Assembly (NCBI GenBank): GCA_043808785.1
Contig: JAZDEL010000008.1
Span: 31,284-63,283 of the forward strand
Origin: Candidatus Iainarchaeum sp.
GTDB taxonomy: Archaea > Iainarchaeota > Iainarchaeia > Iainarchaeales > JAZDEL01
Reading direction: 5' to 3'
DNA length: 32,000 bases
Part shown: in pieces, positions 14,352 through 31,996 of the stretch
Position numbering within the stretch: position 1 is the stretch's first letter
Layout of the letters: every line of letters begins with the position of its first letter
Made by a program: the position numbers and the translations under genes
Notes under the pieces: model-generated
The model's database searches: none
The model's input: the letters and a program-made list of their open reading frames with translations, nothing else
What the model was told of the DNA's origin: nothing

Positions 14352-14529
14352 TGCTCTCAATTAATACAACGGCAAGGCAATATTAAAATGCTTGCCTTAG
14401 CGCACGGTTCCCATAAGCGCGAAGCGGGAAAACCGCGGAACCCGCCCTCTGCGGCGTGTTTTGGCATTTCCTACAAGTAAGAAAGTCTTATATATTAGAA
14501 CGCACGCATTTATTGCAGGAGGTGAATCT

Positions 14530-14796: not shown

Positions 14797-15196
14797 CACC
14801 AACATAGCGGTGTCCGCGCTTATCGCAAAGGAGGGCGCGCCTGCAAAGGTATTCGAGAAACTCATCCGCAGGGAAATCGAGAATTACACTTCAAAGGAGA
14901 TAATATCCGAACTGAAGGAAGTGCTGAAAAGGAAGGAAATCGCCGAAAGGACGAGCGGAAAGGCGAGGAAGTTCATCCTGAGGGAGTACCTGAATAATTC
15001 AATGAGGGTCGCGGCAAAGCGCGGGGTGCACGCTGCGGCGCACGATGCGGACAACAGGTTCCTTGAGGCTGCGCTGGCTGCGGGGGCGAAATATATAATT
15101 ACGGGCGACAGCCATCTGCTGGAACTGCGCGAATTTGGGGGCGCGAAAATATTGAGGGCGAAGGAATTTCTGGAAACATCGGCAGGGAAGGGTTAA
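14759..15196 (+). CDS. vapC: PIN domain toxin (PIN_3/TIGR00305-like)
   Basis: RVVIDTNIAVSALI...SKEIISELKEVLKRKE...DADNRFLEAALAAGAKYIITGDSHLLEL. Has a TTG start and overlaps the antitoxin gene by 38 nt. Confidence 0.85.
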   Translation: MSARQGAERVVIDTNIAVSALIAKEGAPAKVFEKLIRREIENYTSKEIISELKEVLKRKEIAERTSGKARKFILREYLNNSMRVAAKRGVHAAAHDADNRFLEAALAAGAKYIITGDSHLLELREFGGAKILRAKEFLETSAGKG

Positions 15197-17340: not shown

Positions 17341-17422
17341 GTGCAAACCTCCCTTGAGCCAATTAACCTAAATATGAAAAGCATTTAAATTTGGTTGTTT
17401 TCGGGCGCCCCGAAATTACGGG

Positions 17423-17848: not shown

Positions 17849-18832
17849 TCACACGAACTGCTCGTAGTTCGTTGAATTAAACCTGTATAAAAATCTTCTT
17901 ATGCGCTGCCCGTTGAAAGTGTATTTCTGCAGCACCTCTTTCTTTTCCCCCGAAAATTCGGAAAATGCGTGGCTGCGCGAGGGGTCGAGGAGAGTGAACT
18001 TTCCCGCGCGTTCGTTAGCTGCTTGCCCGGCTCCCGCATGCCCTGTTCCTGCGTGCACGGTTCCGGCGCGCTCGGTTATGACAAACGCGTGAGTTGTGAG
18101 GTTCTCGAGCTCCGCAATCACGACCTCGGCGCTGGAGTCGCCGAGTGCGGAAAGCAGGGAGCAGAGGAAAATCGCAAGGTCCTCGTCATCGGCAATTTTG
18201 CCGCGCATTATTTCCTTGGGCGTGAGCCAGAAATTGATTTCCAAATCGCTTTCGACGTAATTGATGTCGCGCTGGAGGAAATCGAGGATGCGCGCAGCGG
18301 CCTGCGGATAGTGCTTTTCGAAGGAATAATCCGCGTGCCTGTATTCCTGCAGAAGGCTCTGGATTGTCAAATCTTTCTCATCCACAAGCGATTTCAACTC
18401 GCCGACGGTTTTTTTCTCGAATTCGTTTATCAGGTCGGAGTAGCGCGTGAGAAGGGTGCGGTAAAGCCTGGACCTCAAGTCCTGCACCTGCTCGTGCTGC
18501 TTCTCGTTTCCTGAAACGGAAATTGTCGCGCAGCCTTTGAGGGCGTTGCACTCCTTGAGCGCGCCCATGAGTTTCGCTTTTGTTACCGCAAGTTCCTTTT
18601 TCAGGCGCGTGTTCTCGCGCTCAAGGTCTATGTAAGCGGGCCCCTGCAGGGAAGCAAGGTTGTTCTTGAGGTTTGAAATCTGCTCGGATAATTGCTCCCT
18701 GCGCGCATCATCATGCTCGTCCCTAAGTTCGGATTCGAGTTCCTGTATGCTGCGCCATATTGCCTGCTCCGCCGATGTCTTGCGGAGTTTCTCTATAGGG
18801 AGGCTGGATTCGGCATTTTGCTGTGAATGCAT
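17849..18832 (-). CDS. coiled-coil protein with C-terminal transglutaminase-like (Cys-His-Asp) core
   Basis: Start moved to ATG 18832 (MHSQQNAESS...), because the upstream 159 codons of track ORF 17849..19309 run through intergenic repeats. The N-terminal ~150 aa are heptad-like. The C-terminus shows DLAIFLCSLLSALG (Cys codon complement of 18161-18163), THAFVI (His) and LLDPS (Asp), in the order and spacing of transglutaminase-fold proteins. The domain call is tentative. Confidence 0.5.
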   Translation of the reverse strand: MHSQQNAESSLPIEKLRKTSAEQAIWRSIQELESELRDEHDDARREQLSEQISNLKNNLASLQGPAYIDLERENTRLKKELAVTKAKLMGALKECNALKGCATISVSGNEKQHEQVQDLRSRLYRTLLTRYSDLINEFEKKTVGELKSLVDEKDLTIQSLLQEYRHADYSFEKHYPQAAARILDFLQRDINYVESDLEINFWLTPKEIMRGKIADDEDLAIFLCSLLSALGDSSAEVVIAELENLTTHAFVITERAGTVHAGTGHAGAGQAANERAGKFTLLDPSRSHAFSEFSGEKKEVLQKYTFNGQRIRRFLYRFNSTNYEQFV

Positions 18833-18940
18833 ACGAATATATTTATCTGGGCGGAAAGCCTCAAAAAAGGCACGGTTTTGGTTAGGCACGCAGGAATAAG
18901 CGAAAAAGCGCCTGGCTTCGGCAGGGTTCGGGAAACGGTT

Positions 18941-19043
18941 GCGAAAAAACAAAAAACGCGCGGGTTTTGCGCGGGCACGGGAAAACCGGGCATGGTTTGC
19001 CGGACGCGGGGCAAAAAACAAAAAACCGCCCGCGGTTTGCGAT
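18941..19043. repeat. two direct copies of the A6-C-A6-C + GC-hairpin motif
   Basis: gcgaaaaaacaaaaaacgcgcgggttttgcg (18941-) and ggcaaaaaacaaaaaaccgcccgcggtttgcg (19010-). On the minus strand each reads as a hairpin plus an oligo-T tract. Confidence 0.6.
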
Positions 19044-19072: not shown

Positions 19073-19091
19073 TTTTATATTAATAAAAATT
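19073..19091 (+). promoter_or_regulatory. TATA box of the pilus operon (ttttatattaataaaaatt)
   Basis: Centred about 22 nt upstream of ATG 19104. Closely resembles the box at 19978-19995. Confidence 0.5.
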
Positions 19092-19103
19092 ACATATAGT
19101 GCC

Positions 19104-19541
19104 ATGGTTTCAGTTTTTGGAAAGGGGAATGGGCGAAAAGGGCAGGTGGCGATAGAGTACATACTCATGAGCGCGTTCCTTCTGCTGGTCGTGGGCGTGC
19201 TGTTCGTGCACTCATATACGCAGTATGACAGGACAATGAAGATCGAGATGACGCAGCATGCCGTGGATTCGCTTGGCGAGGCTGCGGACCAGGCGTATGC
19301 GCTCGGCACAGGAAGCGTGCTTTTTGTCGATATGGACCTGCCTTACGGAATCGAGGGCTACACGGTTACGCAGAAGAACATCACATTAAAGTTGAACCTA
19401 ATAGGGGTGCAGGACACGGTATTTACGAGGACTGTTGCCGACCTGAATATGTTTTCCGCAATTCCAACATCCCCGACAAGGCACAGGATGAGGGTCAGCA
19501 TGGGGGCGACCAACATAACGCTGCAGGAGGTCTTCGACTGA
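19104..19541 (+). CDS. pilin-like protein with class III signal peptide
   Basis: MVSVFGKGNGRKG|QVAIEYILMSAFLLLVVGVLFV: basic residue, then Gly, then Q-x-x-x-E-Y and a hydrophobic helix. Confidence 0.75.
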   Translation: MVSVFGKGNGRKGQVAIEYILMSAFLLLVVGVLFVHSYTQYDRTMKIEMTQHAVDSLGEAADQAYALGTGSVLFVDMDLPYGIEGYTVTQKNITLKLNLIGVQDTVFTRTVADLNMFSAIPTSPTRHRMRVSMGATNITLQEVFD

Positions 19542-19581
19542 ACTGCAGCCAGCCAAATCGCTTCGGGGGGGTGTTGCCGGC

Positions 19582-19941
19582 ATGCGTAGAGGACAGGCTT
19601 CCATCGAGATCCTGATGGCTGTGGGGCTTATAATCATAATATTCATCTTTGTGAGCTGGTTTGTCTCAACAAGGGCGGCGGATACGGAATTCGTACACAC
19701 GCAGTACGAGAACCAGCGCGTGTGCGAAAGGCTGGCATCCATAATTTCTTCCGTTTACGCGGCAAAGTCCGGGACTGAGATAAAGACCACTATAGAGAGC
19801 AATGCCCAAATAGTGAACAACAGCATACACATAGGGCAGTATGCCTGCGACTTCGTCGGCAAGGCAAACCCTGCAACCCTGGCTGCGGGGCCGATAAGTG
19901 CGCGCAATCAGGGCGGAATCGTGATTTTGCAAAACCCGTGA
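19582..19941 (+). CDS. pilin-like protein with class III signal peptide
   Basis: MRRG|QASIEILMAVGLIIIIFIFVSWFV. RBS-like GGGGGGTG lies upstream. Confidence 0.75.
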   Translation: MRRGQASIEILMAVGLIIIIFIFVSWFVSTRAADTEFVHTQYENQRVCERLASIISSVYAAKSGTEIKTTIESNAQIVNNSIHIGQYACDFVGKANPATLAAGPISARNQGGIVILQNP

Positions 19942-19977
19942 TCCTGCAAAACATATGATGTTAGCCGAAAACGAGCC

Positions 19978-19995
19978 ATATATTAAATAAAAAAT
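19978..19995 (+). promoter_or_regulatory. internal TATA-like box (atatattaaataaaaaat)
   Basis: Lies 13-30 nt upstream of ATG 20008. Shares ATATTAA(A)TAAAAA with the box at 19073-19091. Confidence 0.35.
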
Positions 19996-20007
19996 GCAGA
20001 AGGCGTT

Positions 20008-20541
20008 ATGATGGATGTTGCTTTTCCAGGGAAATCCCCTGCGTGCGGAGTAAGGGGGCAGATTGCGGCAATAGACTTCCTGTTCGGGCTTTTCATATTC
20101 CTGCTCATAGTTGCGTGGCTGCTCAGCGTGTGGACAAACAACATGGAGGTCGCGATAGGCGAGCAGAATTTCGATGAGATGAGGATGAAGGGCTTCCAGA
20201 TCATGGACGTGCTTGTAAGGACGCCAGGCACGCCCGAGAACTGGGAGGGCACGGGCATCACAAACATAAGCACGATAGGGCTGGCATACAAGGACAGGGT
20301 TGTGGATGCCAACAAGCTCGCGAAGTTCATATGGCTCGGCGATATCGCGCACGAATATGCAAAAACAAAGGAGATATTCGGGATTGTGCCTTACGATTAC
20401 GAATTCACGCTTGACGGCATCGAGGACTTCAACACCGGCAAGCCCATAGAGGGCGCACCCATAGTTATCTCGATGGAGAGAACAGTGCTGTATCTGGGGA
20501 GCGATGCAAATGCGAAGATTGCCATTTACTGGGAAGAGTAG
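20008..20541 (+). CDS. pilin-like protein with class III-like signal peptide
   Basis: ...GVRG|QIAAIDFLFGLFIFLLIVAWLLSVW followed by a roughly 135-aa soluble domain. Confidence 0.7.
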   Translation: MMDVAFPGKSPACGVRGQIAAIDFLFGLFIFLLIVAWLLSVWTNNMEVAIGEQNFDEMRMKGFQIMDVLVRTPGTPENWEGTGITNISTIGLAYKDRVVDANKLAKFIWLGDIAHEYAKTKEIFGIVPYDYEFTLDGIEDFNTGKPIEGAPIVISMERTVLYLGSDANAKIAIYWEE

Positions 20542-22804
20542 GGCTGCCTGCACGCGGCGTGCGGGCAGGGGCGTGGCAATATCCGTCGATGCCCTGCTTG
20601 CGGTAATATTGATAGCCACGCTCGCCACTTTCGGGAAGTTCGCGCTCTACCAGGAGGCTGCGCCCAATAACCTTGTAAAGATGCAGACAATGCAGCGCAC
20701 GGACGACGTGTTCACTACAATGGTAAACTCGGGTTACATGATGGATGTCATGGACGACAACGGCTTCAACTCGGCTTCCGTGCAGGCGATTTACGCAAAG
20801 ATGAACGCCATGACGCCGAGCAGCCTCGGGCTCAGGATTGCGATGAGGAAGTACGACATAAATTTCATGCAGTGCAGGGAATCCAAGACATTCGAGGCGT
20901 GCTTCCCCGATGAAAGCATGAGCGAGATAATTGAGGGTGGCACTGTGCCGCCAGATACCGAGGTGCTGCACGGCAGGAAGGTGTTTGTAAAGCAGGAAAA
21001 GCCCGGGGAGTGCGGAGGCGATTATAACGGGGGGTATGCGCAGGGCGGAATCGCGGATGCGCTTTGGAACGGCATCCTGATGTTCGCTGCCTACGGAAAC
21101 GCGGACATTAACTTCAGCATAGATGTCAGCCCCGAGAGTGAGCTCAATTGCGATGAAGAGGCGGATGTGTCGCTTGGAATAAGCGTGGGCATCGGCGGCA
21201 GGGACCCTGTCGATGTTGCGCTTGTTATGGACCGCTCGGGGAGCATGGATGATTACACTATGTTTGACAGGAACGTGCTTACGGGGCAGTTTGACGACGG
21301 CAACAAAACCTGCAACTGCGCAAGCTGGATGTGCAGCCTGTGCGGCAACAGCTGGTGCTCGTGGTGCTATACTTACGGGAACTGGCAGACGCTCGGCACT
21401 TTCACAATAGACAGCAACCAGGACACGAATGTGACGATGAGGTATGCGGGATACAGCGGGGGCAGCAAGCCGAAGCTGAGGATTGTGAGCCCCGGTGGAA
21501 CTACTTACGGCGGGACCGCGGCTTCTGTAGCGGCCAGTTATCCTGTACAGCTAGGCACCTGGACCGCGCAGGGATGGAGCGACGACTGGATAGATTACAA
21601 TGTGAGCGTATATTACAGGAAGATCGATGTCTCAAAGGACGGGGCGCAGTATTTTGTGGGGCTTGCGGACTGGGAGGAACAGGACCAGCTTGCGCTGGTT
21701 TCCTACAACCAGAGCGCAACGCTGAACCAGGCGCTGACTACGGACAAGAACAAGGTGTGGGTTGCGATAAACGGGCTGAGCGCCGGCGGCAATACCGCGA
21801 CAGGGGACGCGATTTACAAGGCGACGGACGAACTCATGGGCGGCACGAACCAGAATTCGGATGCGATGAAATTCCAGGTCTTGCTGAGCGACGGGCAGAC
21901 GAATACCGGCAGTTCATCCTCGGCTGCGGCGCAGGACGCAAAAAACAAGGGCATAATAATTTACACAATAGGCCTTGGCGAGGATGTCGATGCGAACGAA
22001 CTGCAGGCGATTGCGGACATAACCGGCGGGCAGTACTATTATGCAAACGACCAGAACGCGCTTCAGGAACTGTATGAAATTATTGCGGGGAATATAGGGG
22101 ACGACGCTTCGGGGGGATATGCAATGACCAATGTCATTGTTAAGATTCCCGTGCCCCCGGGCACAACCATAACCGACACGGGGAACGGCGAATTCCAGGA
22201 GGGGGATGAAAACTTCCTCGTGTTCAATGTCGGGGACATGGAGTACAGTTCGGAGTGGCAGGGGAATTATTCCCTTGTTTATCCCTGCTCGGAAGAGCCG
22301 AGCTGCTCGGCTTCCGAAAAGGTTTTTCCAGAAGAGGGGGCGTACGTGAGTTACATAGACGTGAACGGTATCCCGCAGAATATCGACTGGGATGTCAATG
22401 TTACCCTGGATTTCCTCTACCGCGACCTTGCAATAGAGATAATCGGCGGCGAAATCACGGGCGAGAACGAGGTTTACCTCGATGTGAATGCGAAGAACCC
22501 GGGTTACCTTGACACAGTGGCCACGGACATAAAGTTCTACCTCAACGGCACCGGAGGGGACGGGGGCGAGTACATTACAAGCAGGAATGTTTCGGCAATG
22601 TGCGGCGGGTTAAGTGAAGGGTGCGATAACAGCAGCGAAGAGTTCTACGATATTTTCATAAACAAGGAGGGTTATATTTATGCGGTGATAAATGAGGATT
22701 CGGAGAACGAGGAATGCCCGAACAGGAATGTGGATTCGATAAATTGCTACGAGGGCGCTAAGACGCAGTATTTCACCCTCGATTACTGGGTGTGGCTTAA
22801 ATGA
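20504..22804 (+). CDS. large pilin-like protein with vWA domain (intact MIDAS) and C-terminal beta-rich, CARDB-like region
   Basis: N-terminus RRAGRG|VAISVDALLAVILIATLATF. MIDAS DRSGS at 21230-21244, then GGNTATGDAI, LLSDGQTN and IYTIGLGEDVDANELQAIADITGGQYYYA. An alternative ATG lies at 20510. Overlaps the previous gene by about 35 nt and the next gene by ATGA. Confidence 0.8.
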   Translation: MQMRRLPFTGKSRAACTRRAGRGVAISVDALLAVILIATLATFGKFALYQEAAPNNLVKMQTMQRTDDVFTTMVNSGYMMDVMDDNGFNSASVQAIYAKMNAMTPSSLGLRIAMRKYDINFMQCRESKTFEACFPDESMSEIIEGGTVPPDTEVLHGRKVFVKQEKPGECGGDYNGGYAQGGIADALWNGILMFAAYGNADINFSIDVSPESELNCDEEADVSLGISVGIGGRDPVDVALVMDRSGSMDDYTMFDRNVLTGQFDDGNKTCNCASWMCSLCGNSWCSWCYTYGNWQTLGTFTIDSNQDTNVTMRYAGYSGGSKPKLRIVSPGGTTYGGTAASVAASYPVQLGTWTAQGWSDDWIDYNVSVYYRKIDVSKDGAQYFVGLADWEEQDQLALVSYNQSATLNQALTTDKNKVWVAINGLSAGGNTATGDAIYKATDELMGGTNQNSDAMKFQVLLSDGQTNTGSSSSAAAQDAKNKGIIIYTIGLGEDVDANELQAIADITGGQYYYANDQNALQELYEIIAGNIGDDASGGYAMTNVIVKIPVPPGTTITDTGNGEFQEGDENFLVFNVGDMEYSSEWQGNYSLVYPCSEEPSCSASEKVFPEEGAYVSYIDVNGIPQNIDWDVNVTLDFLYRDLAIEIIGGEITGENEVYLDVNAKNPGYLDTVATDIKFYLNGTGGDGGEYITSRNVSAMCGGLSEGCDNSSEEFYDIFINKEGYIYAVINEDSENEECPNRNVDSINCYEGAKTQYFTLDYWVWLK

Positions 22805-24999
22805 ACAAAACGAAAAATCAGGCATGCCGCAGGGGCTACACGCTGTCCCTCGATGCAATGCTTGCTCTGCTCCTCGTGATTGCATTCATAGGTTTCAGCA
22901 GGGTTGTGCCTTTCGAGGCCGGCACCACAAGCAACCTGCCGAAGATGCAATCCGTGCAGAGGGCGGACGATGTTTTCACTACGATGATAAACAGCGGATA
23001 TATGTGGCAGAAAATAGACGAGGTCGGGCTGAATAACGAGGCGGCGGAAAACATATACGCCAAGATGAGGGGCATGCTGCCTGACAGTGTCGATTTCAGG
23101 ATTGTGATAAGGAAGTACCAGGTGAATTTCGACCAGTGCAGGCTTGGCAAGACATTTGAGGCGTGCTTCCCGAGCGATGGCTTGTCGGAAAGGATTGCGG
23201 GCAAGGTGCCGCCCGTAAGGAGCGAGGTTGTGCACGGCAGGGGCGTATTTGTGAAGAAGGAGCCTGTCGGGATGTGCACTGTGGAGGGCGGGCTTGCGCC
23301 AAAGGAAGGCGGGGTTTCGGAGAAAAAATCCACTGCATGGCTTGAAGGGGAAATGATGGGGCTTGAGATGACAACAAGCGTAGACCCTCCAGCCCCGCCG
23401 TGCCCCCCGAATTCGCTTTTGTGCGACGGCACTGCTACAACACACCTTGGTCTAAATGCGATAGCCGGGGAGGGAAGGGCGCCGGGGCATGTGCTGTTTG
23501 GGATTGACATGGGCAACCCTATGGGCAAGAGGTACGTGACCCAGAGCGGCTTCAACCTTGTCGGCCCCTGCAGCAAGCTAGGGACAACCATGGGGACGTT
23601 CCAGAACACAACAGATTACTCTTTCACGCTTAAATTAAGCGACTGCTTGGGGGCCAAAATTACAGCCATCAGCCCTACTCTCGCGGAATACGGGCCGGGT
23701 GACTATGTCGATGTTTACCGCCCGACAGCGCTTGGCACCTGGACTGTTCAATGCAGCAATAAAGATGCATTGTCGTGCAATGTCATTATGACGCGCACAA
23801 ATTTAGAGGCGGGGCAGATGTTTCTTGAAGGCGTAGTGGCTACAACCGATTGGAAACTCGAGGGCGCTGAAGGCCCCGACGAGGATGCGTTCACGACATT
23901 TCAGGACACCACATCAACGCTTCTCGTGCCGTTAACAACTGACGAGGATTCGGTACTGCCTGCAATAGACGGCCTGCTAATCTCCCAGCTTGGCAGCAAT
24001 GCGGATGTTGCTGCAGCGGTAATTGCGGCAACCGATATACTAAAAACAACCCCTGAAGGGGAGGTAAGGATATTTATTCCTGTCACAAACATCCACACAG
24101 GGGGGAGCATAGCCGATGCCGCGAACTATGCCAAGGCAAACGGCGTGGTGGTTTACCCTGTTGGTGCCGGGTATAATTCGGATATGGTTGCACTAAACGA
24201 ATTAGCATTAATTACAGGGGGAGAGGCGTGGCTTCTGACCGAAACTGACGCACTAATAGATTATTATACACTCATGGCCCAGAAACTGAAGGAGAGCATG
24301 ATAAACGGCAACCGCATAGACAATGCGCAGCTCAGGATTCCTGTTCCCGCGGGGCAGCTGGTTACCGAACACCTTGGCGGGGAGATAATACCGGAGGGCG
24401 AGGAAGAGTTCCTTGTTTACGACCTTGGAACGCTTGATGTCGGCGAGGGGTGGAGCACGGATTATTCCGTAGTGTTCCAGTGCAATGACGACCACGCATG
24501 CCAGAGCGGGAACACGCGGACTTTCCCGCAGCCTGTAACGGAAATAACCTACATGGATATAGATGGCTTGTTCGGCTCTGTGCCCTGGGACCCGCTTGTG
24601 GAGGTGCCTTTCAAATACCGCGACCAGGAGGTTAAAATAATGGGCGGCAGGATTGTGGGGGAGAACCAGGTTTACCTTGATGTGAATGTTGCGAATGTCG
24701 GGCATCTTGATACGGTGGATACGTCGCTCAGGTTTTACAAGGACAGCACAGGCGATGACGGCACGTACCTTACCGCAAGGGGCGTAAGCGCGATGTGCGG
24801 CGGGCTCGAGGCGGGGTGCGGGGACAATGAGGCGTTGTATTACGATGTTCCGCTGGCAGCGGAGGGCTATCTTTACGCGATTGTGAACAAGCTCGGGGAA
24901 AATTCCGAGTGCCCCACAAACAGCCAGGATGTCATACTGTGCCAGCTAGGGGCGAAGACAGAGTATTACACTATCGATTATTATGTGTGGCCGAAATGA
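22801..24999 (+). CDS. large pilin-like protein, paralog of the preceding gene, with a degenerate (MIDAS-less) vWA-like domain
   Basis: N-terminus ACRRG|YTLSLDAMLALLLVIAFIGF. Alignable by eye to the upstream paralog in the N-domain (MQSVQRADDVFTTMINSGYM vs MQTMQRTDDVFTTMVNSGYM; KTFEACFP in both) and in the C-terminal ~220 aa (ENQVYLDVNVANVGHLDTV vs ENEVYLDVNAKNPGYLDTV; SAMCGGL in both). The MIDAS position reads DMGNP (23506-23520). Confidence 0.8.
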   Translation: MNKTKNQACRRGYTLSLDAMLALLLVIAFIGFSRVVPFEAGTTSNLPKMQSVQRADDVFTTMINSGYMWQKIDEVGLNNEAAENIYAKMRGMLPDSVDFRIVIRKYQVNFDQCRLGKTFEACFPSDGLSERIAGKVPPVRSEVVHGRGVFVKKEPVGMCTVEGGLAPKEGGVSEKKSTAWLEGEMMGLEMTTSVDPPAPPCPPNSLLCDGTATTHLGLNAIAGEGRAPGHVLFGIDMGNPMGKRYVTQSGFNLVGPCSKLGTTMGTFQNTTDYSFTLKLSDCLGAKITAISPTLAEYGPGDYVDVYRPTALGTWTVQCSNKDALSCNVIMTRTNLEAGQMFLEGVVATTDWKLEGAEGPDEDAFTTFQDTTSTLLVPLTTDEDSVLPAIDGLLISQLGSNADVAAAVIAATDILKTTPEGEVRIFIPVTNIHTGGSIADAANYAKANGVVVYPVGAGYNSDMVALNELALITGGEAWLLTETDALIDYYTLMAQKLKESMINGNRIDNAQLRIPVPAGQLVTEHLGGEIIPEGEEEFLVYDLGTLDVGEGWSTDYSVVFQCNDDHACQSGNTRTFPQPVTEITYMDIDGLFGSVPWDPLVEVPFKYRDQEVKIMGGRIVGENQVYLDVNVANVGHLDTVDTSLRFYKDSTGDDGTYLTARGVSAMCGGLEAGCGDNEALYYDVPLAAEGYLYAIVNKLGENSECPTNSQDVILCQLGAKTEYYTIDYYVWPK

Positions 25000-25023
25000 G
25001 CCATTTGAAGGGGGAATAAGTGA

Positions 25024-26052
25024 ATGAAAAATTGCCTTGTGCGGAAAGGGATGGGCGAGAGGGGCGTGCTTTTCACATTCATGGTTTTCATGATTGTGAT
25101 GATAGTGCTCGGCCTCGGCACGACTATAAAGGGCGGCAGGCTGAAGTTCGAGTCGGATGTCACCAAAACCTCGGCACTGGAGGGCACGAGCAACAAATTC
25201 GGCAACATAATGAACGATGTCGTAAATTTCGACAAAAACAACCTTGCGAGGAACATACAGAAGAGAATTATGCCGTTCGATTATGAGTATGACGGAAACG
25301 CCATCCGGGTAGGGCAGGAACTGCCGATGAAGGTCGGGATGCTCGACCTTTCGTTCGACATACTGAACGCGTACGATATCTTCATTTCGGACACGAACTC
25401 GCAGACTACATACGACCTGATGCATGTCGACGTGAATGCGGCAAAAAACAAATATTGGGGCGGCGACAGGAACAGCATACAATTCATGATAAAGCCGCAG
25501 TGCCTGAAGTTTGTTGTTGTCGACGAGAACGTTACGGGCTTCTTCGGCGGGATTGCGGACGAGGGCTGCGCATCGGGCTTCTCAGTCCAGAGCCTAAGGA
25601 GGTATGACCTCAATATCCTGATAAAACAGGCCAACCAGGCATATAACAATATTGTGTGCAATTTTGCAGGGTCCCCCCCCGAGGAATGCCCCACGGAAAT
25701 TTTCAGTTCTGGCGACAATGACCCTTACTTCGAGATGTTTGTTGACGACAGTTTGTGCACAAACTGCCAGCTCGGGGGGCAGACAAAGCACATATACGGG
25801 CATTACGACCCGGCATCCAACAATACTGTGGGTGTTTCGTGCGCAGGGGGGCCGGAAATATGCGGCGTCACGATAAACCCCATACTTGTGACTGTCAACA
25901 GCGGCATGAAGGCGGAGAACAAGGGCGGCGCTTTGGACGTAAACATGAGGGCGGAACTCGGGGGAAATATAATGCGGTTTTATTTCATGGACTTTAATTT
26001 TGCGGTAAGCCGCCCGGATTTCAACACCATGATGACGAATGTCGGGCAGTGA
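25024..26052 (+). CDS. Cys-rich pilin-like / membrane-anchored protein, hypothetical
   Basis: MKNCLVRKGMGERG|VLFTFMVFMIVMIVLGLG, then about 310 aa with 8 Cys in the predicted extracellular part. Confidence 0.6.
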   Translation: MKNCLVRKGMGERGVLFTFMVFMIVMIVLGLGTTIKGGRLKFESDVTKTSALEGTSNKFGNIMNDVVNFDKNNLARNIQKRIMPFDYEYDGNAIRVGQELPMKVGMLDLSFDILNAYDIFISDTNSQTTYDLMHVDVNAAKNKYWGGDRNSIQFMIKPQCLKFVVVDENVTGFFGGIADEGCASGFSVQSLRRYDLNILIKQANQAYNNIVCNFAGSPPEECPTEIFSSGDNDPYFEMFVDDSLCTNCQLGGQTKHIYGHYDPASNNTVGVSCAGGPEICGVTINPILVTVNSGMKAENKGGALDVNMRAELGGNIMRFYFMDFNFAVSRPDFNTMMTNVGQ

Positions 26053-26185
26053 TGCCGGGCAAATTGCGGGAAAAAATAAGCGGGCGCGGGAAACGCGGAA
26101 ATAAGAACCAATAAAAAGCGGAACGGGTATATTTTATTGAAAACAAAATCTTGGCATCGGATGGAAAAAGGAACGGGTCGGAAAT

Positions 26186-27943
26186 ATGGCTGAAGGCACT
26201 GGAAAGGAAGGCATCGGCGAGGCGATACTGAATTTCTTCAGGTCGCTCAGGAGGACGAAGATTCGCGGGAAAAAACAGCAGGATGCCGAGGCGCCGGGGG
26301 GCGAACTTGCCGAAGAAATTGCACCCGAAGAAAAAAAGGCGGGGAGGGGGAAGGCTGCGCCTGGAAAGGCTGCGGGGGGCTGGGAAGAGCGGGGGGAAAC
26401 CGCCGAAAAAACAGCCGGCAGCGGAGAGGCAAAAGCGCGGGAAGGCGAAACCGCGGGAATGGGGCCTGAAGAAAAGAAAATGCTCGAGAAGGAACTCAGT
26501 GAGTGGAGGTCAAAAGTAGATGCGCTTACAAAAAAGGTGGAGAACCTTGAGGAAAGGCTCAAGTCAAACACAATATCCCCCAACCAGGCGGTAAGCGGGA
26601 TTCAGGTTGTTTACGGGGAAGTGGACAGGGAGGAGAACTCGATAAACAGGGAGATGCGCGCAACAAAGGCGGTGATGAAGGGCACTGTTTTCGATTATTA
26701 CAAGAGGCGCATGACGCTGGACGAGTTCAGGAAGAGGATGCTCGAGTACAGGGGCAGGCTGCGCGTGCTGCAGGTCGAGAAAGCGGAATTGAAGAAGGAG
26801 GGCTCGAAGATAAGGGAAATGGGCGGGACTGTAAAGCAGTTCGCGCTGCAGATGCCTGCAAACGCAACAGTTGTGCCGGGCGGGAGTGCGGAGATGGACG
26901 CGGTATTCGGAAAAGGCGGCGGGGGCGGGAAAGGTAAAATTATAGGCGTGATTGGGGGCGGGGGCGGTGAGCAATCAGGAGGCGGGGCGGCGCCCGGGGG
27001 GAGCGGCAATTCCGCAGGCGGCGGGATAGGCGGCGCTGTTGAGGGCGTTGTTTCCGGAGTTGTGGGGGCAGGGTATGCAGCAGCATCCGCACTTAAGGGC
27101 GGGAAAAAAAGCGATGCGGGTTCGCGCGCGGCGCTGGCTGGTGCGGAACGCGCCGAGAGGGAGGCAAGGGCTTCCGCTGGAAAAGCCGTGGCGGGAAAAG
27201 GTGCAAAGGGGCCGAAAGGCGCAAGGGCATTTGCGGTAAACGTCTCGGGCAGGGATGAAGGGGGGGCGGGAAAGGCTGCCAAGCCGGCGCTCCCGAGGAT
27301 GCCGAATGGGAAGGGGGAGCGGGAAGGTGCGGATGCAGGAGGGGGGGAAGAAGTGGATAAGGATGCCCTTGAGGAAAGGTGGGGGGGCGCGGCAGGGGTG
27401 AAGGAAATACTTGAGGCAAAGGCGGGGGGAAAAATCGACAGCGAAAGGCTTGCGGAACTGGAGAAAAAAATAAACGCCCTGCTCAAGGCGCACAAAATTT
27501 CCGAAAGCGACCTCGGGGAAAAGGCCGGGGAGATGGACACCTCGAAAGTCATAGAGAGTTTCAACAAGCTTATAGATTTGGTGGAACTTGAGAAGAGGGC
27601 AAAAAGGGCGGGCGTGCTGCAGGAGCCGACAAACACCCTGGAGGTTTCCGCTGTCGGGCTGGGCTCGCCAAAAAAGGTGGAGGCACTTAAGGGGATTGCG
27701 ATAGACCTGAAGAAGCACCGCATAGTGACGGATTTCGACCGCGTGCTCTCGCTCATAAAGGAAAAAAAGAAGATGGGGCTTATTGAGGTCGCGGCAACGC
27801 TCGGCATAGACAAGAAATGGGCGGAGGAGTGCTGCGAAATACTCGAACAGAGCGGGCTTGTGGAAATAGTATACCCGCCTTTCGGAAAGGCGGGGGTAAG
27901 GCTTTCGGGATATGTTGAGGAGAAGAAGCCCAAGAAAAAATGA
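26186..27943 (+). CDS. cytoplasmic low-complexity (Gly/Ala/Lys/Glu-rich) coiled-coil protein with C-terminal winged-helix-like domain
   Basis: No hydrophobic segment. Contains a coiled-coil stretch (EKKMLEKELSEWRSKVDALTKKVENLEERLK), a Gly-rich core, and an ordered-looking C-terminal ~70 aa (IVTDFDRVLSLIKEKKKMGLIEVAATLGIDKKWAEECCEILEQSGLVEIVYPPFG). TATA gtatattttatt at about 26125-26139. Strand chosen by operon context; the antisense ORFs are Pro/Ser/Ala low-complexity. Confidence 0.6.
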   Translation: MAEGTGKEGIGEAILNFFRSLRRTKIRGKKQQDAEAPGGELAEEIAPEEKKAGRGKAAPGKAAGGWEERGETAEKTAGSGEAKAREGETAGMGPEEKKMLEKELSEWRSKVDALTKKVENLEERLKSNTISPNQAVSGIQVVYGEVDREENSINREMRATKAVMKGTVFDYYKRRMTLDEFRKRMLEYRGRLRVLQVEKAELKKEGSKIREMGGTVKQFALQMPANATVVPGGSAEMDAVFGKGGGGGKGKIIGVIGGGGGEQSGGGAAPGGSGNSAGGGIGGAVEGVVSGVVGAGYAAASALKGGKKSDAGSRAALAGAERAEREARASAGKAVAGKGAKGPKGARAFAVNVSGRDEGGAGKAAKPALPRMPNGKGEREGADAGGGEEVDKDALEERWGGAAGVKEILEAKAGGKIDSERLAELEKKINALLKAHKISESDLGEKAGEMDTSKVIESFNKLIDLVELEKRAKRAGVLQEPTNTLEVSAVGLGSPKKVEALKGIAIDLKKHRIVTDFDRVLSLIKEKKKMGLIEVAATLGIDKKWAEECCEILEQSGLVEIVYPPFGKAGVRLSGYVEEKKPKKK

Positions 27944-27967
27944 AATTTTCACGGGAAGGTGAGGTGC

Positions 27968-29479
27968 ATGGCGGATAAGCAGATAAAGGAATATGAACTC
28001 GAATCCGAGGGAATGAAGGTAAACATACGGATTGTGGAGATGGAGGGCGAATTCGTAAAGAGCTATTTTGTGGACATACCCGAATTCGGCCCCGGCACGG
28101 AGGCGCTGCTGCAGAACCTGAAGGGCTACCTTGTTACGGACACTAGCATAAAAACGGAGAAGATGTTCGACGCGAAATTCATAGATTCGCTGAGGAAGAT
28201 ATTCAGGGAGCGCGCGGAAATAATACTCTCCAAGGAGCTGCCGCATGCGGACCAGAGGACGAAGGACCTGCTCATAAGCATGCTGCTGCACGAGATGCTC
28301 GGGCTCGGCAAGTTAGAGTTCATGCTTGCCGACGGGAACCTCGAGGAAGTGGTCGTGAACACGGCAGCGGAGCCTGCGTGGGTCTACCACAAGGAGTTCG
28401 GGTGGCTCAAGACGAACATAACGTTCGCGAACGAGGGGCAAACGCAGAACTTCGCAAGCATAATAGCAAGGCGTGTGGGGAAGCAGATAACCGTGCTGAA
28501 CCCGCTGCTTGACGCGCACCTCATAACAGGGGACAGGGCGAATGCGACGCTTTTCCCGATTTCGGGGAAGGGGAACACGATAACGATAAGGCGATTTAGG
28601 CGCGACCCGTGGACTGCCGTGGATTTCATAGCGAACAAAACTGCAACAATTGAACTTATGGCACTTGTGTGGTCCGCAATACAGTATGAAATGAACCTTA
28701 TAGTGAGCGGCGGCACGGCTTCGGGAAAGACCTCGTTCCTGAACGTTTGTATGCCGTTCATACAGCCGAACCACAGGATTGTGAGCATAGAGGACACGCG
28801 CGAAATTTCATTGCCGAGCTTCCTGCACTGGGTGCCAATGACCACAAGGGAGCCTAACCCTGAAGGGCACGGCGGGGTGAGCATGCTTGATTTGCTTGTG
28901 AACTCGCTCAGGATGAGGCCTGACAGGATAATTGTGGGTGAAATAAGGAGGCAGAAGGAGGCGGAGGTGCTTTTCGAGGCGATGCACACCGGGCACAGCA
29001 CTTACACAACAGTACACGCAAACACAGCGGACGAAACAATAAGGAGGATGGCGAACCCGCCAATAGCGATACACCCCACGATGCTTGAGGCAGTGCACCT
29101 CAATGTGGTCATGTTCAGGAACCGCAGGCTGGGGATAAGGCGCATACTGGAACTTGCGGAGTTTATACCTGAAAAGAGGTCCGAGACCGAGGAAAATATA
29201 AAGCCGAACGTGCTTTACAGGTGGAAGCCTGCAAAGGACGTAATAGAGAAGCACGCGGACAGCATAAGGTTCTTCGACGAAATGAGCCTGCACACGGGAA
29301 TGACACGCAGCGAGATAGACAAGGACCTCAAGAGCAAGCAGGGCGTGCTTGAATGGATGATAAATCAGAAGATCCGCTCCATTGAGGACGTCGGGGCGGT
29401 AATGGCAAATTATTATTCAAACGAGGACGAAATACTCGGCTTCGTCAAACAGAAAAAGAAACCGCCGTTTGTGAGATGA
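27968..29479 (+). CDS. type IV pilus/archaellum-family secretion ATPase (FlaI/PilB/TadA-like)
   Basis: Walker A SGGTASGKTSF (around 28709-28732), Asp box RIVSIEDTREI, Walker B PDRIIVGEIR, His box MHTGHSTYTTVHAN. ATG 27968 is preceded by GGTGAGGTG (the track start is GTG 27959). Confidence 0.9.
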   Translation: MADKQIKEYELESEGMKVNIRIVEMEGEFVKSYFVDIPEFGPGTEALLQNLKGYLVTDTSIKTEKMFDAKFIDSLRKIFRERAEIILSKELPHADQRTKDLLISMLLHEMLGLGKLEFMLADGNLEEVVVNTAAEPAWVYHKEFGWLKTNITFANEGQTQNFASIIARRVGKQITVLNPLLDAHLITGDRANATLFPISGKGNTITIRRFRRDPWTAVDFIANKTATIELMALVWSAIQYEMNLIVSGGTASGKTSFLNVCMPFIQPNHRIVSIEDTREISLPSFLHWVPMTTREPNPEGHGGVSMLDLLVNSLRMRPDRIIVGEIRRQKEAEVLFEAMHTGHSTYTTVHANTADETIRRMANPPIAIHPTMLEAVHLNVVMFRNRRLGIRRILELAEFIPEKRSETEENIKPNVLYRWKPAKDVIEKHADSIRFFDEMSLHTGMTRSEIDKDLKSKQGVLEWMINQKIRSIEDVGAVMANYYSNEDEILGFVKQKKKPPFVR

Positions 29480-30369
29480 TGAAGCAGGCATCGATACCGT
29501 TCAGCCCTTTGCCGGCAAAAATGCTGCTGCAGCTTTGCGGGCGCTTTAAGGGAATGGGGGCTAGGATAACAAACGCTTTCCCCTACATGAAAGTGGAGCT
29601 GAAGCAGGCGGAACTCGGGGTTGACGAGGCTGAATACGGCGCCGCAATGGTCTTCCTGTTCGGGTTCTATTTTGTGGCGGCAACCATAGTGGTTTATGCT
29701 ATGGGGCTGCAGTTCTTCCCTGAAAACGCGATTATTGCGGCGCCGACACTCGGCGGAATATTCGCATTCCTTGTGCTGATACAGCTAAGCATGTTCCCGA
29801 AAATAAAGGTAAAGAAGAAGGTAAGGGACATAGAGCGCAACCTTATTTTTGCGCTTAGGACCCTGCTCATCGAAATAAAATCCGGCGTCACGCTTTTCAA
29901 CGCGATAAACGTGGTTGCGGAAGGGCGCTACGGTGCGGTAAGCAGGGAATTCAGCAAGGCCGTTGAGAAGATAAATACCGGCACGAGCGAGGAGGCCGCG
30001 CTTGAGGAAATCGCCGCCCAAAATCCCTCGCTTTTCTTCAGGAGGGCGATGTGGCAGCTGCTTAACGGCCTTAAAACCGGCGGGGACATAAGCAATGCGG
30101 TTGCCGCAATGGTGGATACGCTTGCAAAGGAGCAGGCAAATCAGGTGAGGAAATACGGCTCGTCGCTGAGGCTGCTCTCGCTTGTTTACATGATGCTTGG
30201 CGTGATAATACCTGCATTGGGGCTGACTTTCCTCATAATACTCGGGTCGTTCCCGCAGATAGCGATAACGGAGATGATGTTCTGGGCACTGCTTGCGGCA
30301 ATAATCCTCGGGCAGTTTATGTATCTCGGCATGCTTAAATCCGGAAGGCCGAACCTCATGGGTGAGTGA
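29476..30369 (+). CDS. T2SSF-domain membrane platform protein, half 1 (TadB/EpdJ-like)
   Basis: One T2SSF module (LIFALRTLLIEIKSGVTLFNAINVVAEG...FFRRAMWQLLNGLKTGGDISNAVAAMVDTLAKEQ) flanked by TM helices. An ATGA overlap joins it to the ATPase stop. Confidence 0.85.
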   Translation: MMKQASIPFSPLPAKMLLQLCGRFKGMGARITNAFPYMKVELKQAELGVDEAEYGAAMVFLFGFYFVAATIVVYAMGLQFFPENAIIAAPTLGGIFAFLVLIQLSMFPKIKVKKKVRDIERNLIFALRTLLIEIKSGVTLFNAINVVAEGRYGAVSREFSKAVEKINTGTSEEAALEEIAAQNPSLFFRRAMWQLLNGLKTGGDISNAVAAMVDTLAKEQANQVRKYGSSLRLLSLVYMMLGVIIPALGLTFLIILGSFPQIAITEMMFWALLAAIILGQFMYLGMLKSGRPNLMGE

Positions 30370-30370
30370 T

Positions 30371-31369
30371 ATGTACAAGAAAATAGCGGCATTCATCCCT
30401 TCGGGCATAATCAAGGCGTTCAGGAGGGAAATGGACTACCTCAATATAGACCTGAGCGAGAAGACCGTGGTTGGGTTCATTGTTGTTTATGGCGCTGCAC
30501 TGAGCCTCGGGATTGCGCTGTGCGCGTTTGCCTTCATAGGGGTAGATATTGCCGCGACTTTCCTGGCCTCATTTGTGCTGTTCTGCGTGGGCACATACCT
30601 CTGGCTAAGCATTGCCGCCGAATCGAAGGGAAAGCTTGTGGATTCAATACTCCCCGACGCGCTGCAGCTCATTGCCGCAAACATAAAGGCGGGGCTGACA
30701 ACCGAAAGGGCACTGCTTGTTTCGGCAAGGCCCGAATTCGGGCCGCTTGAGGCTGAACTTAAGGCCACTGGGCGGAGGATTATGGCAGGCATTCCGCTCG
30801 AGGTCGCGCTCGAGGAAATACCCAGGAAGATAAAATCCGAGACGCTTGAGAGGATGATATGGCTCATATCCAAGGGGATAGAGAGCGGGGGGCAGATTGC
30901 GGACCTCCTTACGCACCTTTCCGACGACATGCGGGAGCAGAACAGCGTGAAGGACGAAATATCCGCGAATGTGTCGATGTATGTGCTGCTTATTTTCTTC
31001 TCCTCCGCAATGGGCGGGCCCATCCTGTTCGGGGTGAGCAGTTTCATTGTGCAGATCCTTGGTGCGCAGACCGCAAACATGCCGCACCTCGATATTTCAT
31101 CCCTGCCCGGCGGAGGGGGGAGCTCTGCAGGAATTGCCGCAATGGCCAGCGGGGGCGGGGCTTCGATACCTCCCGATTTCGTCATGCTCTTCTCCGAGAT
31201 TTGCCTTGTTGTTACCGCGATATTTGCGGCACTTACCATGGGGGTAATAAACACAGGCAAGGAGCAGGGAGGGGCAAAATTCATACCCATAATACTTGTG
31301 ATTTCATTCGTACTGTTTTTTGCGGTAAGGGAAGTGCTGAAAGCTGTATTTGGGAACCTGCTTATGTAG
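30371..31369 (+). CDS. T2SSF-domain membrane platform protein, half 2 (TadC/EpdK-like)
   Basis: One T2SSF module (LPDALQLIAANIKAGLTTERALLVSAR...LERMIWLISKGIESGGQIADLLTHLSDDMREQ) with TM helices. ATG 30371 is preceded by GGTGAG; the alternative GTG 30362 would overlap the upstream gene by 8 nt. Confidence 0.85.
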   Translation: MYKKIAAFIPSGIIKAFRREMDYLNIDLSEKTVVGFIVVYGAALSLGIALCAFAFIGVDIAATFLASFVLFCVGTYLWLSIAAESKGKLVDSILPDALQLIAANIKAGLTTERALLVSARPEFGPLEAELKATGRRIMAGIPLEVALEEIPRKIKSETLERMIWLISKGIESGGQIADLLTHLSDDMREQNSVKDEISANVSMYVLLIFFSSAMGGPILFGVSSFIVQILGAQTANMPHLDISSLPGGGGSSAGIAAMASGGGASIPPDFVMLFSEICLVVTAIFAALTMGVINTGKEQGGAKFIPIILVISFVLFFAVREVLKAVFGNLLM

Positions 31370-31531
31370 CTGGCGGGAAACTTGGGGATTGCCGCGAGGC
31401 AATGCCGGAACTTGGCTGCCGCACAGCCGGTGGCAAGCAATTGTCAGGCTTAAGCCTGCGCGGAATAGCGCTGCATGGTTAAGCCCGCTAAGGAATCGGC
31501 TTGAAAAATAAAAGAAGGGGGGAGTGCGGCC

Positions 31532-31996
31532 TTAAGGCGCCCTTCCCTTGCAGCTTGCTGTCGAAGTCCTGCTGAAGCCGTCGGAGTCGGTGTATGTTAT
31601 GGACAGGTTCACTGTGTAGGTTCCCTTGGATGTGAACGTGTCGTTTGTGCCCAGTGTGGATATTATCCTCTTTTCTTCGTTCGCCGAAATCGCACCAAGG
31701 GTGTTTGTGTCTATTAGGTTGCCGGTGAATGTCAGGGTTGCGCCTGTGAGGTTCTGGCCCGTCATGTTTGTGAAGATTACGGTGTATGTGCCGCTGCTGC
31801 ACGCGCCGCCTGCACCTGTGCAGGTTACGCTCTGCGCCCTTATCGGGAGCTTTGCAAGCCCTGTGCAGCCCTCCGCACCTATCTGCGTCGGGTTGATCAG
31901 GAAGACGAGTGCCGCAATCGCGATCACAATGACCACGAGAGCCCAGCCGTATGTCATCAGGTATTCCAGCGCCGATTGACCTTTATTGCCAAACAT
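31532..31996 (-). CDS. archaeal type IV pilin (class III signal peptide), candidate major pilin
   Basis: MFGNKG|QSALEYLMTYGWALVVIVIAIAALVFL is the canonical archaeal prepilin N-terminus. The mature part is Thr/Gly-rich with 4 N-x-S/T sequons (NMT, NLT, NDT, NLS) and 5 Cys. Convergent with the operon. Confidence 0.85.
   Translation of the reverse strand: MFGNKGQSALEYLMTYGWALVVIVIAIAALVFLINPTQIGAEGCTGLAKLPIRAQSVTCTGAGGACSSGTYTVIFTNMTGQNLTGATLTFTGNLIDTNTLGAISANEEKRIISTLGTNDTFTSKGTYTVNLSITYTDSDGFSRTSTASCKGRAP

Follow-up and report, generated by a model that had tools for sequence, protein, structure and literature searches.

How DPANN archaea, which are abundant and mostly host-dependent, find and hold their hosts is largely a puzzle. 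A locus in a 32,000-nucleotide (nt) stretch of a Candidatus Iainarchaeum genome (contig JAZDEL010000008.1; the whole stretch is called the window below) raises the question of what kind of surface filament it encodes and whether that filament belongs to a type already described. Eleven genes are involved: g1 to g10 are co-directional and lie between positions 19104 and 31369, g11 is convergent, and an open reading frame (ORF) scan recovered all eleven where a first-pass annotation, made from the letters of the DNA without database searches, had placed them. Their products are named here p1, p2, p3, V4, V5, X6, Y7, the assembly ATPase (g8), F9, F10 and p11 (Table 1). In our reading, to which we assign a probability of about 0.65, they form a complete type IV pilus (T4P) assembly machine minus the prepilin peptidase, the Iainarchaeota/Micrarchaeota-type version of a DPANN-wide pilus that would serve in attachment. 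The operon is a strong candidate for a DPANN attachment or uptake apparatus because its ATPase spans DPANN, with 567 relatives, and the N-terminus of its predicted major pilin is almost invariant. The locus falls within a well-known superfamily, and such DPANN loci have previously been noted in the literature.

The assembly machine and its conservation

Motor and platform are encoded by three consecutive genes. The ATPase, a secretion ATPase of hexameric type, matches the Pfam family T2SSE (PF00437) with 117.8 bits, and its motifs are complete: Walker A (GGTASGKT), Asp box (IVSIEDTRE), Walker B (RMRPDRIIVGEIR) and His box (HTGH). F9 and F10 carry one T2SSF domain each (PF00482; 61.9 and 57.1 bits) and are paralogous, with 29% identity over that domain. 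These matches bear out the first-pass recognition of an archaeal type IV filament locus, which combines pilins with a FlaI/PilB-family ATPase and a PilC/TadC-type platform. Position 27968 is the likely start of the ATPase, since the resulting 503-residue product is 100% identical to a database protein (P0001) of a Candidatus Diapherotrites metagenome-assembled genome. Homologues that are 61–79% identical occur by the hundred in Diapherotrites, Micrarchaeota and unclassified archaea. An exhaustive search of representative sequences returned 2214 clusters at E ≤ 1e-30, and ten full-length matches looked up among the nearest ones outside the ATPase family (metagenome proteins, one from Altiarchaeota, one labelled 'archaeon') are 36–46% identical. 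The best relative of solved structure is GspE of A. fulgidus (2OAP; 222 bits, end-to-end alignment), ahead of FlaI (168) and CpaF (161), and there is a weak Pfam match to PilB3_C. Among NCBIfam models FlaI (NF058587) scores best, at 256 bits against a cut-off of 550, while TadA (TIGR03819) reaches 179.6 against 373 and the bindosome protein BasE 122 against 1000. Many DPANN homologues of the ATPase (P0089, P0171–P0180 and others) are about 1000–1240 amino acids (aa) long, with a match split around residues 243–277, near Walker A, and one homologue has the intein-splicing Pfam domain PF14890, which suggests that intein insertion is frequent in the family; the ATPase of the window has no such insertion. 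As the first-pass annotation had also reported, the 32-kb window contains no A24-family prepilin peptidase. The sole candidate near related loci that combined a GxGD motif with multiple transmembrane (TM) segments was rejected as a Yip1-family protein.

One genome per GTDB species was scanned with the ATPase, and 567 relatives were confirmed. The best 80 of these 567 are 52–79% identical and come from Iain-, Micr-, Woese-, Pace-, Nano-, Aenigm-, Nanohalo- and Altiarchaeota; the ATPase family is very strongly conserved and DPANN-spanning. ORFs called in 86 retrieved loci were searched using the eleven proteins of the window as queries, and the counts of loci given below for each of these families refer to this set. 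Gene order is conserved over these loci in the form p1-p2-p3-[V4-X6]-Y7-ATPase-F9-F10, with copies of p11 nearby, and the gene calls of public assemblies independently give the same order. The succession ATPase-F9-F10 is kept in 69 of the 75 loci that hold all three genes. Every DPANN phylum has a core of three small minor pilins, the winged-helix protein, the motor ATPase and both platform genes, together with a major pilin close by. The genes for the von Willebrand factor A (vWA) protein and X6, in turn, always co-occur, inserted between p3 and Y7; they were detected in 24–25 loci, of which those with a phylum label belong to Iainarchaeota or Micrarchaeota and many others are labelled just 'archaeon'. 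Where vWA and X6 were not detected, p1 or p2 is enlarged to 400–1200 aa, in some cases with Ig-like, MG2 or MopE-type domains (examples are L033:291-3391, L020:705-2351, L051:1894-5514 and L081:891-6001, given as locus and positions). These enlarged proteins look like alternative, lineage-specific 'functionalised' pilins.

Pilin-like proteins, the vWA/342-aa module and the winged-helix protein

All seven pilin-like proteins (p1–p3, V4, V5, X6 and p11) have a [KR]G followed by exactly one N-terminal hydrophobic segment, and five of them pass a FlaFind-type pattern (KGQVAI, RGQASI, RGQIAA, RGVAIS and KGQSAL). By comparison, of 17 further ORFs of the window that were tested, the majority with Pfam matches to housekeeping families, none has a class III-type N-terminus. 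In alignments over related loci, which reach across phyla, [KR][GA]↓x beside the hydrophobic segment (the arrow marks the predicted cleavage site) is kept in each of the seven families (motifs in Table 1). Because the motif is conserved in every one of them, chance is not the explanation. The seven N-termini look like class III signals with predicted cleavage, as the first-pass annotation had proposed; its expectation as regards FlaFind-type prediction held for five of them, the failures of V5 and X6 being weighed below.

The signature of Q+1 and E+5 is present in p1 (QVAIE), p2 (QASIE) and p11 (QSALE) and lacking in V4, V5 and X6. The p1 family occupies the first position of the operon in 49 loci; p1 itself scores 23.3 bits with the Pfam family Class_IIIsignal, just under the cut-off of 23.7, and 21 of 33 p1 homologues match PF04021. 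The p2 family, second in the operon in 42 loci, has invariant E9, C48 and C89, and one of its 29 homologues matches the Pfam family TadE weakly (E 0.06). The p3 family, third in 54 loci, has Q+1 with an acidic residue at +6 and lacks E+5; ten of 33 members show weak matches to the haloarchaeal DUF7287. The N-terminus of p11 (NKG↓QSALEYLMTYGWA) belongs to a type, KGQSALEYLMTYGWA, that is near-invariant across DPANN. In 49 loci one to four stand-alone copies of the family adjoin the operon, encoding proteins of about 130–204 aa. The window copy has four N-glycosylation sequons and four Cys residues, and its globular part has no Pfam match and no significant sequence match in the PDB. We predict that p11 is the major pilin because it is stand-alone, often multicopy and near-invariant at its N-terminus; the same criterion was used in PMC4858521.

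V4 and V5 are full-length paralogues, 36% identical, and both match the Pfam family VWA (70.7 and 26.3 bits; cut-off 23.8), so that the pair of pilin-like vWA proteins of about 750 aa noticed in the first pass is real. The metal ion-dependent adhesion site (MIDAS) of V4 is intact (DRSGS, residue 243). V5 has DMGNP at this position, with no DxSxS, and the downstream SDGQT is also gone. A second vWA copy was detected in the window and its closest relative, L001, only. In public annotation g4 encodes 743 aa, starting 23 codons downstream of the start of the long ORF, and the basic leader is lost. Since KG↓F before the hydrophobic stretch is conserved in V4 homologues, the longer reading is preferred, which suggests that the annotated start is too late.

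The AlphaFold2 model of V4, made from a 27-sequence alignment, has a mean predicted local distance difference test (pLDDT) score of 81. It consists of a TM helix (28–46), an N-terminal helical/beta domain (53–165), a vWA domain (236–535) interrupted by a beta insert of about 120 residues with a Cys cluster (250–370), and C-terminal beta-sandwiches of about 225 residues (541–766). In a Foldseek comparison with the PDB a Catenulispora vWA protein ranked top, followed by PitA (2e-14), SpaC and Mfa5; archaeal ArnB and the S. sanguinis PilB structures 7BA2 and 7B7P (about 1e-8) appeared at lower ranks. The best multi-domain matches are thus tip adhesins of pili. Their likeness to V4 is informative about the mode of working and not about ancestry, because the common element is a vWA domain with flanking beta domains. 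On the strength of the model V4 is predicted to be a tip adhesin, and an adhesive role at the tip or as a minor pilin is the best reading of its structure; to this extent the first-pass suggestion of an adhesive filament with a vWA tip is supported by the modelled fold. In profile comparison the N-terminus of V4 aligns with that of p3 (probability 89%, 38 columns), and the similarity in the p3–V4 and X6–V4 comparisons is confined to the N-terminal signal/TM part. As a separate observation, a 1019-aa vWA protein of Halomontanus rarus (P0161, L087:10001-13060) has a pilin-like DUF7289 N-terminus (RGNA↓QIIGLVLLIG), and its gene is stand-alone in its genome. On account of this haloarchaeal example, pilin-like vWA proteins are not confined to DPANN; such fusions exist outside DPANN and outside T4P loci.

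X6, described in the first pass as a Cys-rich pilin-like protein of 342 aa, has nine Cys, of which four are nearly invariant in the family, and no Pfam or NCBIfam match. Its N-terminal motif and TM segment are kept in homologues, which were found in 25 loci, always after the vWA gene; a word-based homologue search returned two proteins only. The likely start is M10 at 25051, the position at which a close homologue also begins. X6 is possibly a large minor pilin that caps the filament.

G, A, K and E are abundant in Y7, and TM segments are absent. Charged, coiled-coil and Gly/Ala-rich disordered regions precede a winged helix at about residues 510–575, and conservation is limited to the C-terminal ~70 residues. 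The winged-helix-like C-terminus read from the sequence in the first pass was recovered by profile and Pfam matches: profiles of the domain match LrpA, IclR, MarR, MntR and eS25 and, more weakly, CdvB/ESCRT-III and the ESCRT-related SNF8, and individual members match TrmB and MarR in Pfam. The domain occurs in the gene just 5' of the ATPase in 67 loci, and in 49 of 66 loci the end of that gene falls between −30 and +60 nt relative to the projected ATPase start. Its context varies among lineages: coiled-coil and disordered regions accompany it in Iainarchaeota/Micrarchaeota-type loci, two to six TM segments lie N-terminal to it in Woese- and Pacearchaeota, and in Aenigm- and Nanohaloarchaeota the winged helix is itself N-terminal and followed by a coiled coil. 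Y7 is most likely a motor-associated adaptor, cytoplasmic or membrane-proximal, a reading preferred because of the fixed adjacency to the motor gene and the existence of membrane-anchored variants. It is possible that Y7 is instead a transcription factor, perhaps acting on four AAAAC...GGTTT repeats upstream of the operon.

Genomic setting of the locus

The coordinates of the locus and of the adjoining features are collected in Table 1. At the non-overlapping junctions from g1 to g10 the gaps range from 24 to 133 nt (40 nt between g1 and g2, 66 nt between g2 and g3, 133 nt between g6 and g7), and neighbouring genes overlap by 4 nt (g4/g5 and g8/g9) or 8 nt (g9/g10), as well as by 38 nt at g3/g4 given the long start of g4.

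Table 1. Genes of the pilus locus and features immediately upstream, with the N-terminal motifs found in family alignments (arrows, predicted cleavage).
Feature	Position	Strand	Basis	Family motif
p1 (g1), minor pilin, 145 aa	19104..19541	+	predicted class III signal RKG↓QVAIEY	[KR][GA]↓Q..xEY
p2 (g2), minor pilin, 119 aa	19582..19941	+	RRG↓QASIE, family conservation	[KR][GA]↓QxSxE
p3 (g3), minor pilin, 177 aa	20008..20541	+	VRG↓QIAAID, family conservation	[KR][GA]↓Q...D[LF]
V4 (g4), modular pilin-like vWA protein, 766 aa	20504..22804	+	Pfam VWA, AlphaFold2 model	KG↓F[AV]FSLDA
V5 (g5), V4 paralogue, 732 aa	22801..24999	+	Pfam VWA, degenerate MIDAS	
X6 (g6), Cys-rich pilin-like protein, 342 aa	25024..26052 (likely start 25051)	+	ERG↓VLFTF N-terminus	[KR]G↓[VI][LF]FT
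Y7 (g7), cytoplasmic protein, 585 aa	26186..27943	+	C-terminal winged helix, profile matches	
Assembly ATPase (g8), T2SSE/VirB11 family, 503 aa	27968..29479 (alternative start 27959)	+	Pfam T2SSE	
F9 (g9), platform protein, 297 aa	29476..30369	+	one T2SSF domain, ~4 TM segments	
F10 (g10), platform protein, 335 aa	30362..31369	+	one T2SSF domain, ~5 TM segments	
p11 (g11), predicted major pilin, 154 aa	31532..31996	-	near-invariant N-terminus	[KR]G↓Q[SA]A[LM]E[YF]LMTYGWA (nearly invariant)
Transglutaminase-like/CEP76-peptidase-like protein, 327 aa from internal ATG	17849..18832	-	weak Pfam matches, conserved neighbour	
Four hairpin-like repeats	18862..19040		repeat and inverted-repeat search	
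A/T-rich TATA-like element	19074..19089	+	direct reading of the sequence	

The remaining genes of the window are archaeal housekeeping genes (GAPDH, PGK, cupin-type GPI, geranylgeranyl reductase, Dfp, TYW1, AMMECR1 and NFACT), and scans of the window for tRNAs and Rfam families gave zero matches. The pilus locus is chromosomal, because its flanks carry housekeeping genes and its G+C content (0.50–0.57) overlaps that of the flanking DNA (0.46–0.57). An origin as a mobile element was rejected on these two grounds and on that of a GAPDH synteny common to one Micrarchaeota locus. The GAPDH gene (16342–17346, minus strand) is separated from the transglutaminase-like gene by a single 123-aa ORF, and the two genes are also near each other in a Micrarchaeota locus (GAPDH at L006:1-879); downstream of the operon in relatives there are genes for CoaE, a cytidylyltransferase and phosphoglucomutase. 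Conservation of the chromosomal neighbourhood appears to extend past the operon. Downstream of the platform, at a distance of 1–6 kb, several relatives have two paired genes for KaiC/RecA-like ATPases (PF06745/DUF7125 and DUF7504/DUF7090; L003:18970-20307, L005:14575-15966 and L088:21264-22710), and the window stops short of the equivalent position. KaiC-family ATPases are proposed T4P regulators. Elsewhere in the window, amid the housekeeping genes, a PIN-domain protein (PIN_3, E 1.6e-20) is encoded at 14759–15196 on the plus strand; the start of its gene falls 10 nt inside the end of an opposite-strand 123-aa ORF (14397–14768) that has no Pfam match, and the two may be a toxin-antitoxin remnant.

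The product of the gene divergent from the operon is of a cytoplasmic type with a coiled-coil N-terminus and gives sub-cut-off Pfam matches to CEPT76_peptidase (E 7.8e-5; 23.3 bits against 27.8) and DUF553. In 13 non-redundant related loci a transglutaminase-like homologue is encoded upstream of the pilins in the opposite orientation (for example L003:1389-2201, L006:969-1886, L010:2846-3754 and L026:3051-3968), and transglutaminase-family peptidases have been associated with archaeal T4P loci (PMC4858521). Between this gene and g1 there are four copies of the repeat motif AAAAC(C/G)G-N-(C/G)GGTTT(T/G). The pattern AAAAC...GGTTT has four matches in the entire window, against 0.31 expected, and three of the four fall within the repeat region. 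The repeats may be operator sites or terminator-like hairpins. The TATA-like element (TTTATATTAATAAAAA), 15–30 nt 5' of the g1 ATG, is probably the operon promoter, and the leader of the predicted transcript would be short or absent.

Proposed function and relation to known systems

From the general working of type IV filaments the following course of assembly can be proposed. Prepilins would enter the membrane, and an A24-family peptidase encoded elsewhere in the genome would trim their short basic leaders. The ATPase would dock on the F9/F10 platform and drive the polymerisation of p11 into a shaft, while p1–p3, probably together with X6, would make a priming complex that ends up at the tip. 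There the complex would present V4, whose metal site would bind a ligand on a host cell or other surface, with the MIDAS-less V5 as a partner or an alternative tip. Y7 would be the partner of the motor at the cytoplasm or membrane or, alternatively, a DNA-binding regulator. The resulting pilus would attach the small cell to its host or substrate. A more elaborate proposal, which we put forward tentatively and regard as possible rather than probable, is that the operon encodes a conserved DPANN host-contact organelle in which Y7 is a core subunit, not recognised before, that links the ATPase to the membrane or to regulation, in function similar to TadZ, FlaH or PilM, and in which host specificity in the Iainarchaeota/Micrarchaeota-type loci is set by a Cys-rich cap and a specialised tip of two vWA proteins, one MIDAS-active and the other MIDAS-dead. 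If true, the filament would be a T4P of archaea whose modular tip adhesin is a vWA protein, a kind of which no earlier description was found in the literature searched.

Several observations weigh against an attachment pilus of this composition. The strict FlaFind-type pattern is failed by V5 (RGYTLS) and X6 (RGVLFT), and a search limited to the GxGD plus multi-TM pattern found no prepilin peptidase within 10 kb of the ATPase gene in the 86 loci. The model of X6, built from two sequences, has a pLDDT of 32 and gives no usable fold, and a tip complex of p1–p3 and X6 is proposed by analogy alone. Most DPANN operons of this kind lack the vWA/X6 module, which is therefore dispensable for the machine. 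The winged helix of Y7 can equally signify a transcription factor. Finally, DNA uptake in Methanococcus depends on the related Epd pilus (PMC10133366), and it follows that adhesion need not be the only or the main role of the filament discussed here.

The last point leads to the suggestion that the machine is mainly a competence pilus, a retractile or short filament by which DPANN archaea with their reduced genomes would capture extracellular or host DNA and nucleotides, with Y7 handling the DNA inside. The core has the Epd-like split platform and G↓Q+1/E+5 pilins, natural transformation of M. maripaludis requires the Epd pilus including epdJ, epdK and epdL (PMC10133366), the winged helix of Y7 is of the kind found in DNA-binding proteins, and a core present throughout DPANN would suit a nutritional role. 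We nevertheless think it unlikely that uptake is the main role: Pfam and NCBIfam revealed no gene for a DNA-binding pilin, a nuclease or a transporter among those of the operon, the operon has no retraction ATPase, and the lineage-specific extras are adhesin-like (vWA here; Ig-like and MG2 elsewhere). Adhesion and DNA uptake are in any case mutually compatible. Somewhat less likely again is a short pseudopilus or surface-display apparatus, resembling type II secretion or the bindosome of Sulfolobus, with V4, V5 and X6 as cargo or cell-anchored proteins. Many archaeal proteins with class III signals are not filament subunits, and binding proteins with such signals are proposed to 'functionalise' type IV filament machines (10.64898/2026.04.22.720090); moreover, the Q+1/E+5 of p1, p2 and p11 is missing from just these three proteins and the ATPase gives a weak match to BasE. 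This match is, however, far under its cut-off, the small pilin p11, with its typical polymerisation helix, is highly conserved and often multicopy, and the closest multi-domain structural counterparts of V4 are adhesins from the tips of pili.

A rotary motility apparatus of the archaellum type would account for FlaI being the best NCBIfam match of the ATPase and for some homologues bearing the name 'flagellar protein FlaI'. It is nonetheless highly improbable and was rejected: the equivalog cut-offs are missed (FlaI well under 550, ArlJ 25 against 550), Pfam and NCBIfam detected no FlaH, FlaX/CDE, FlaF/G or archaellin domains, the platform is split over two single-domain genes, and the ATPase is nearer among solved structures to A. 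fulgidus GspE than to FlaI. Archaellum genes are also absent from the micrarchaeon Mia14, which fits most DPANN having lost motility (PMC5498576). An attachment pilus stays the preferred reading in what follows.

T4P loci of this general sort have been published from DPANN before, uncharacterised (PMC5498576, 10.64898/2026.04.22.720090 and, in its account of the island in Fig. 2A, PMC6393860). That island (PMC6393860 Fig. 2A, Makarova, Wolf and Koonin 2019), part of the genomic 'dark matter' of the same organisms, comprises a secretion ATPase, TadC, TadB and unrecognisable signal-peptide proteins 'suggested to be diverse pilins'. Two T4P systems occur in Mia14, whose one FlaK-like peptidase is encoded at a distance from these (PMC5498576). 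There are reports of pili-like links that join ARMAN cells to their hosts and of T4P genes in Micrarchaeota (PMC5498576), and cryo-electron tomography of a Micrarchaeota co-culture showed thin symbiont filaments 'that could represent archaeal pili', which were not identified there. Neither the Mia14 paper nor the island account of PMC6393860 describes a conserved order, a vWA/342-aa module, a winged-helix gene or an invariant major-pilin N-terminus. The 2016 census of archaeal T4P included Nanoarchaeota as the only DPANN and named vWA in connection with ArnB-type regulators and bacterial TadG (PMC4858521); a 2026 preprint makes no mention of vWA (10.64898/2026.04.22.720090). Our literature search found no description of the vWA/342-aa module, of a winged-helix gene fixed 5' of the ATPase or of the conserved order, nor is a function described for the accessory genes, and the N-termini are of the class III kind. 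The first-pass statement that the locus matches no known archaeal pilus type was overstated, given the hallmarks of Epd and Tad and the DPANN-wide core, and it was apt for the parts that are new, namely the vWA/342-aa module together with the gene for the winged-helix protein. All the accessory proteins concerned (the two vWA proteins, Cys-rich X6 and Y7) offer concrete targets in the few cultivated DPANN co-cultures.

For the vWA proteins there are bacterial counterparts. V4 shares with S. sanguinis PilB and Pseudomonas PilY1 a T4P-associated vWA/MIDAS module, which functions in adhesion in those systems, and PilB, which has a class III signal and a grafted vWA, is a genuine pilin (PMC8179133). 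V4, an archaeal protein, differs from PilB in being much larger, with its ~120-residue beta insert and ~225-residue beta-sandwich, in an identity of about 13%, and in that its incorporation into a filament is predicted only. PitA, SpaC and Mfa5, the tip adhesins of sortase-assembled and type V pili, resemble V4 in having a vWA flanked by Ig-like or beta-sandwich domains; unlike V4, these bacterial proteins are assembled by sortase or protease-mediated strand exchange and have no class III signal. Closer in overall organisation is the bacterial Tad (Flp) system, where the order tadA-tadB-tadC is mirrored by ATPase-platform-platform and the small pseudopilins TadE/TadF stand beside a large vWA pilin-like protein with an adhesion role (TadG/CpaL), TadG being cited as a vWA pilus component (PMC4858521). 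Membership in Tad was rejected: the TadA score misses its cut-off (179.6 against 373), and no TadZ, secretin (RcpA), TadD or Flp-type pilin was matched. The vWA module of the DPANN loci, moreover, was probably acquired independently, because it was detected in only 24 of the 86 loci.

The most telling comparison is with the Epd pilus of M. maripaludis (clade 1, or system 1). As in that system, two adjacent one-T2SSF platform genes (epdJ/epdK there) lie beside the ATPase gene (epdL), the pilins have a short leader ending in G with Q+1 and E+5 (PF04021/DUF361), there are several minor pilins, which are essential in Epd, and transglutaminase-family peptidases are tied to the loci. Two platform genes with one T2SSF domain each are reported from Epd-like and Tad systems only (PMC6668835), and G-1, Q+1 and E+5 characterise the EppA-processed DUF361 pilins of M. 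maripaludis, E+5 being absent from Sulfolobus and Haloferax pilins (PMC3875500). Against simple membership stand the predicted major pilin, with 154 aa and a globular part where Epd has a 74-aa Flp-like subunit, and the lack in the locus of an EppA gene, DUF2341 (PilY-like) adhesins and a MinD/FlaH-like second ATPase. The vWA pilins, the 342-aa protein and the winged-helix protein are not described for Epd, and the locus ATPase has A. fulgidus GspE as its nearest solved relative and a weak match to PilB3_C. The literature on two-platform DPANN loci is itself split. In PMC4858521 the ATPases of Nanoarchaea fall in euryarchaeal clade 2, many loci of which also have two tadC genes, whereas two other studies favour clade or system 1: the CpaF-family ATPase and two TadC genes of Mia14 were put in a 'Methanococci/Methanothermobacteria/Thermococci group' (PMC5498576), and system 1 is stated to be present in DPANN, with two-platform DPANN loci assigned to it (10.64898/2026.04.22.720090). 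For the locus described here several features of the encoded proteins favour an Epd-like affiliation, because the platform is split, the pilins have Q+1 and E+5 and a transglutaminase-like gene lies divergent from the operon. An Epd-like archaeal system is the presumed ancestor of Tad (PMC6668835), and the combination of Epd/Tad hallmarks (Q+1/E+5 in the pilins, a platform split over two genes, a pilin-like vWA protein) with an ATPase resembling the euryarchaeal type bears on the origin of the Epd/Tad lineage.

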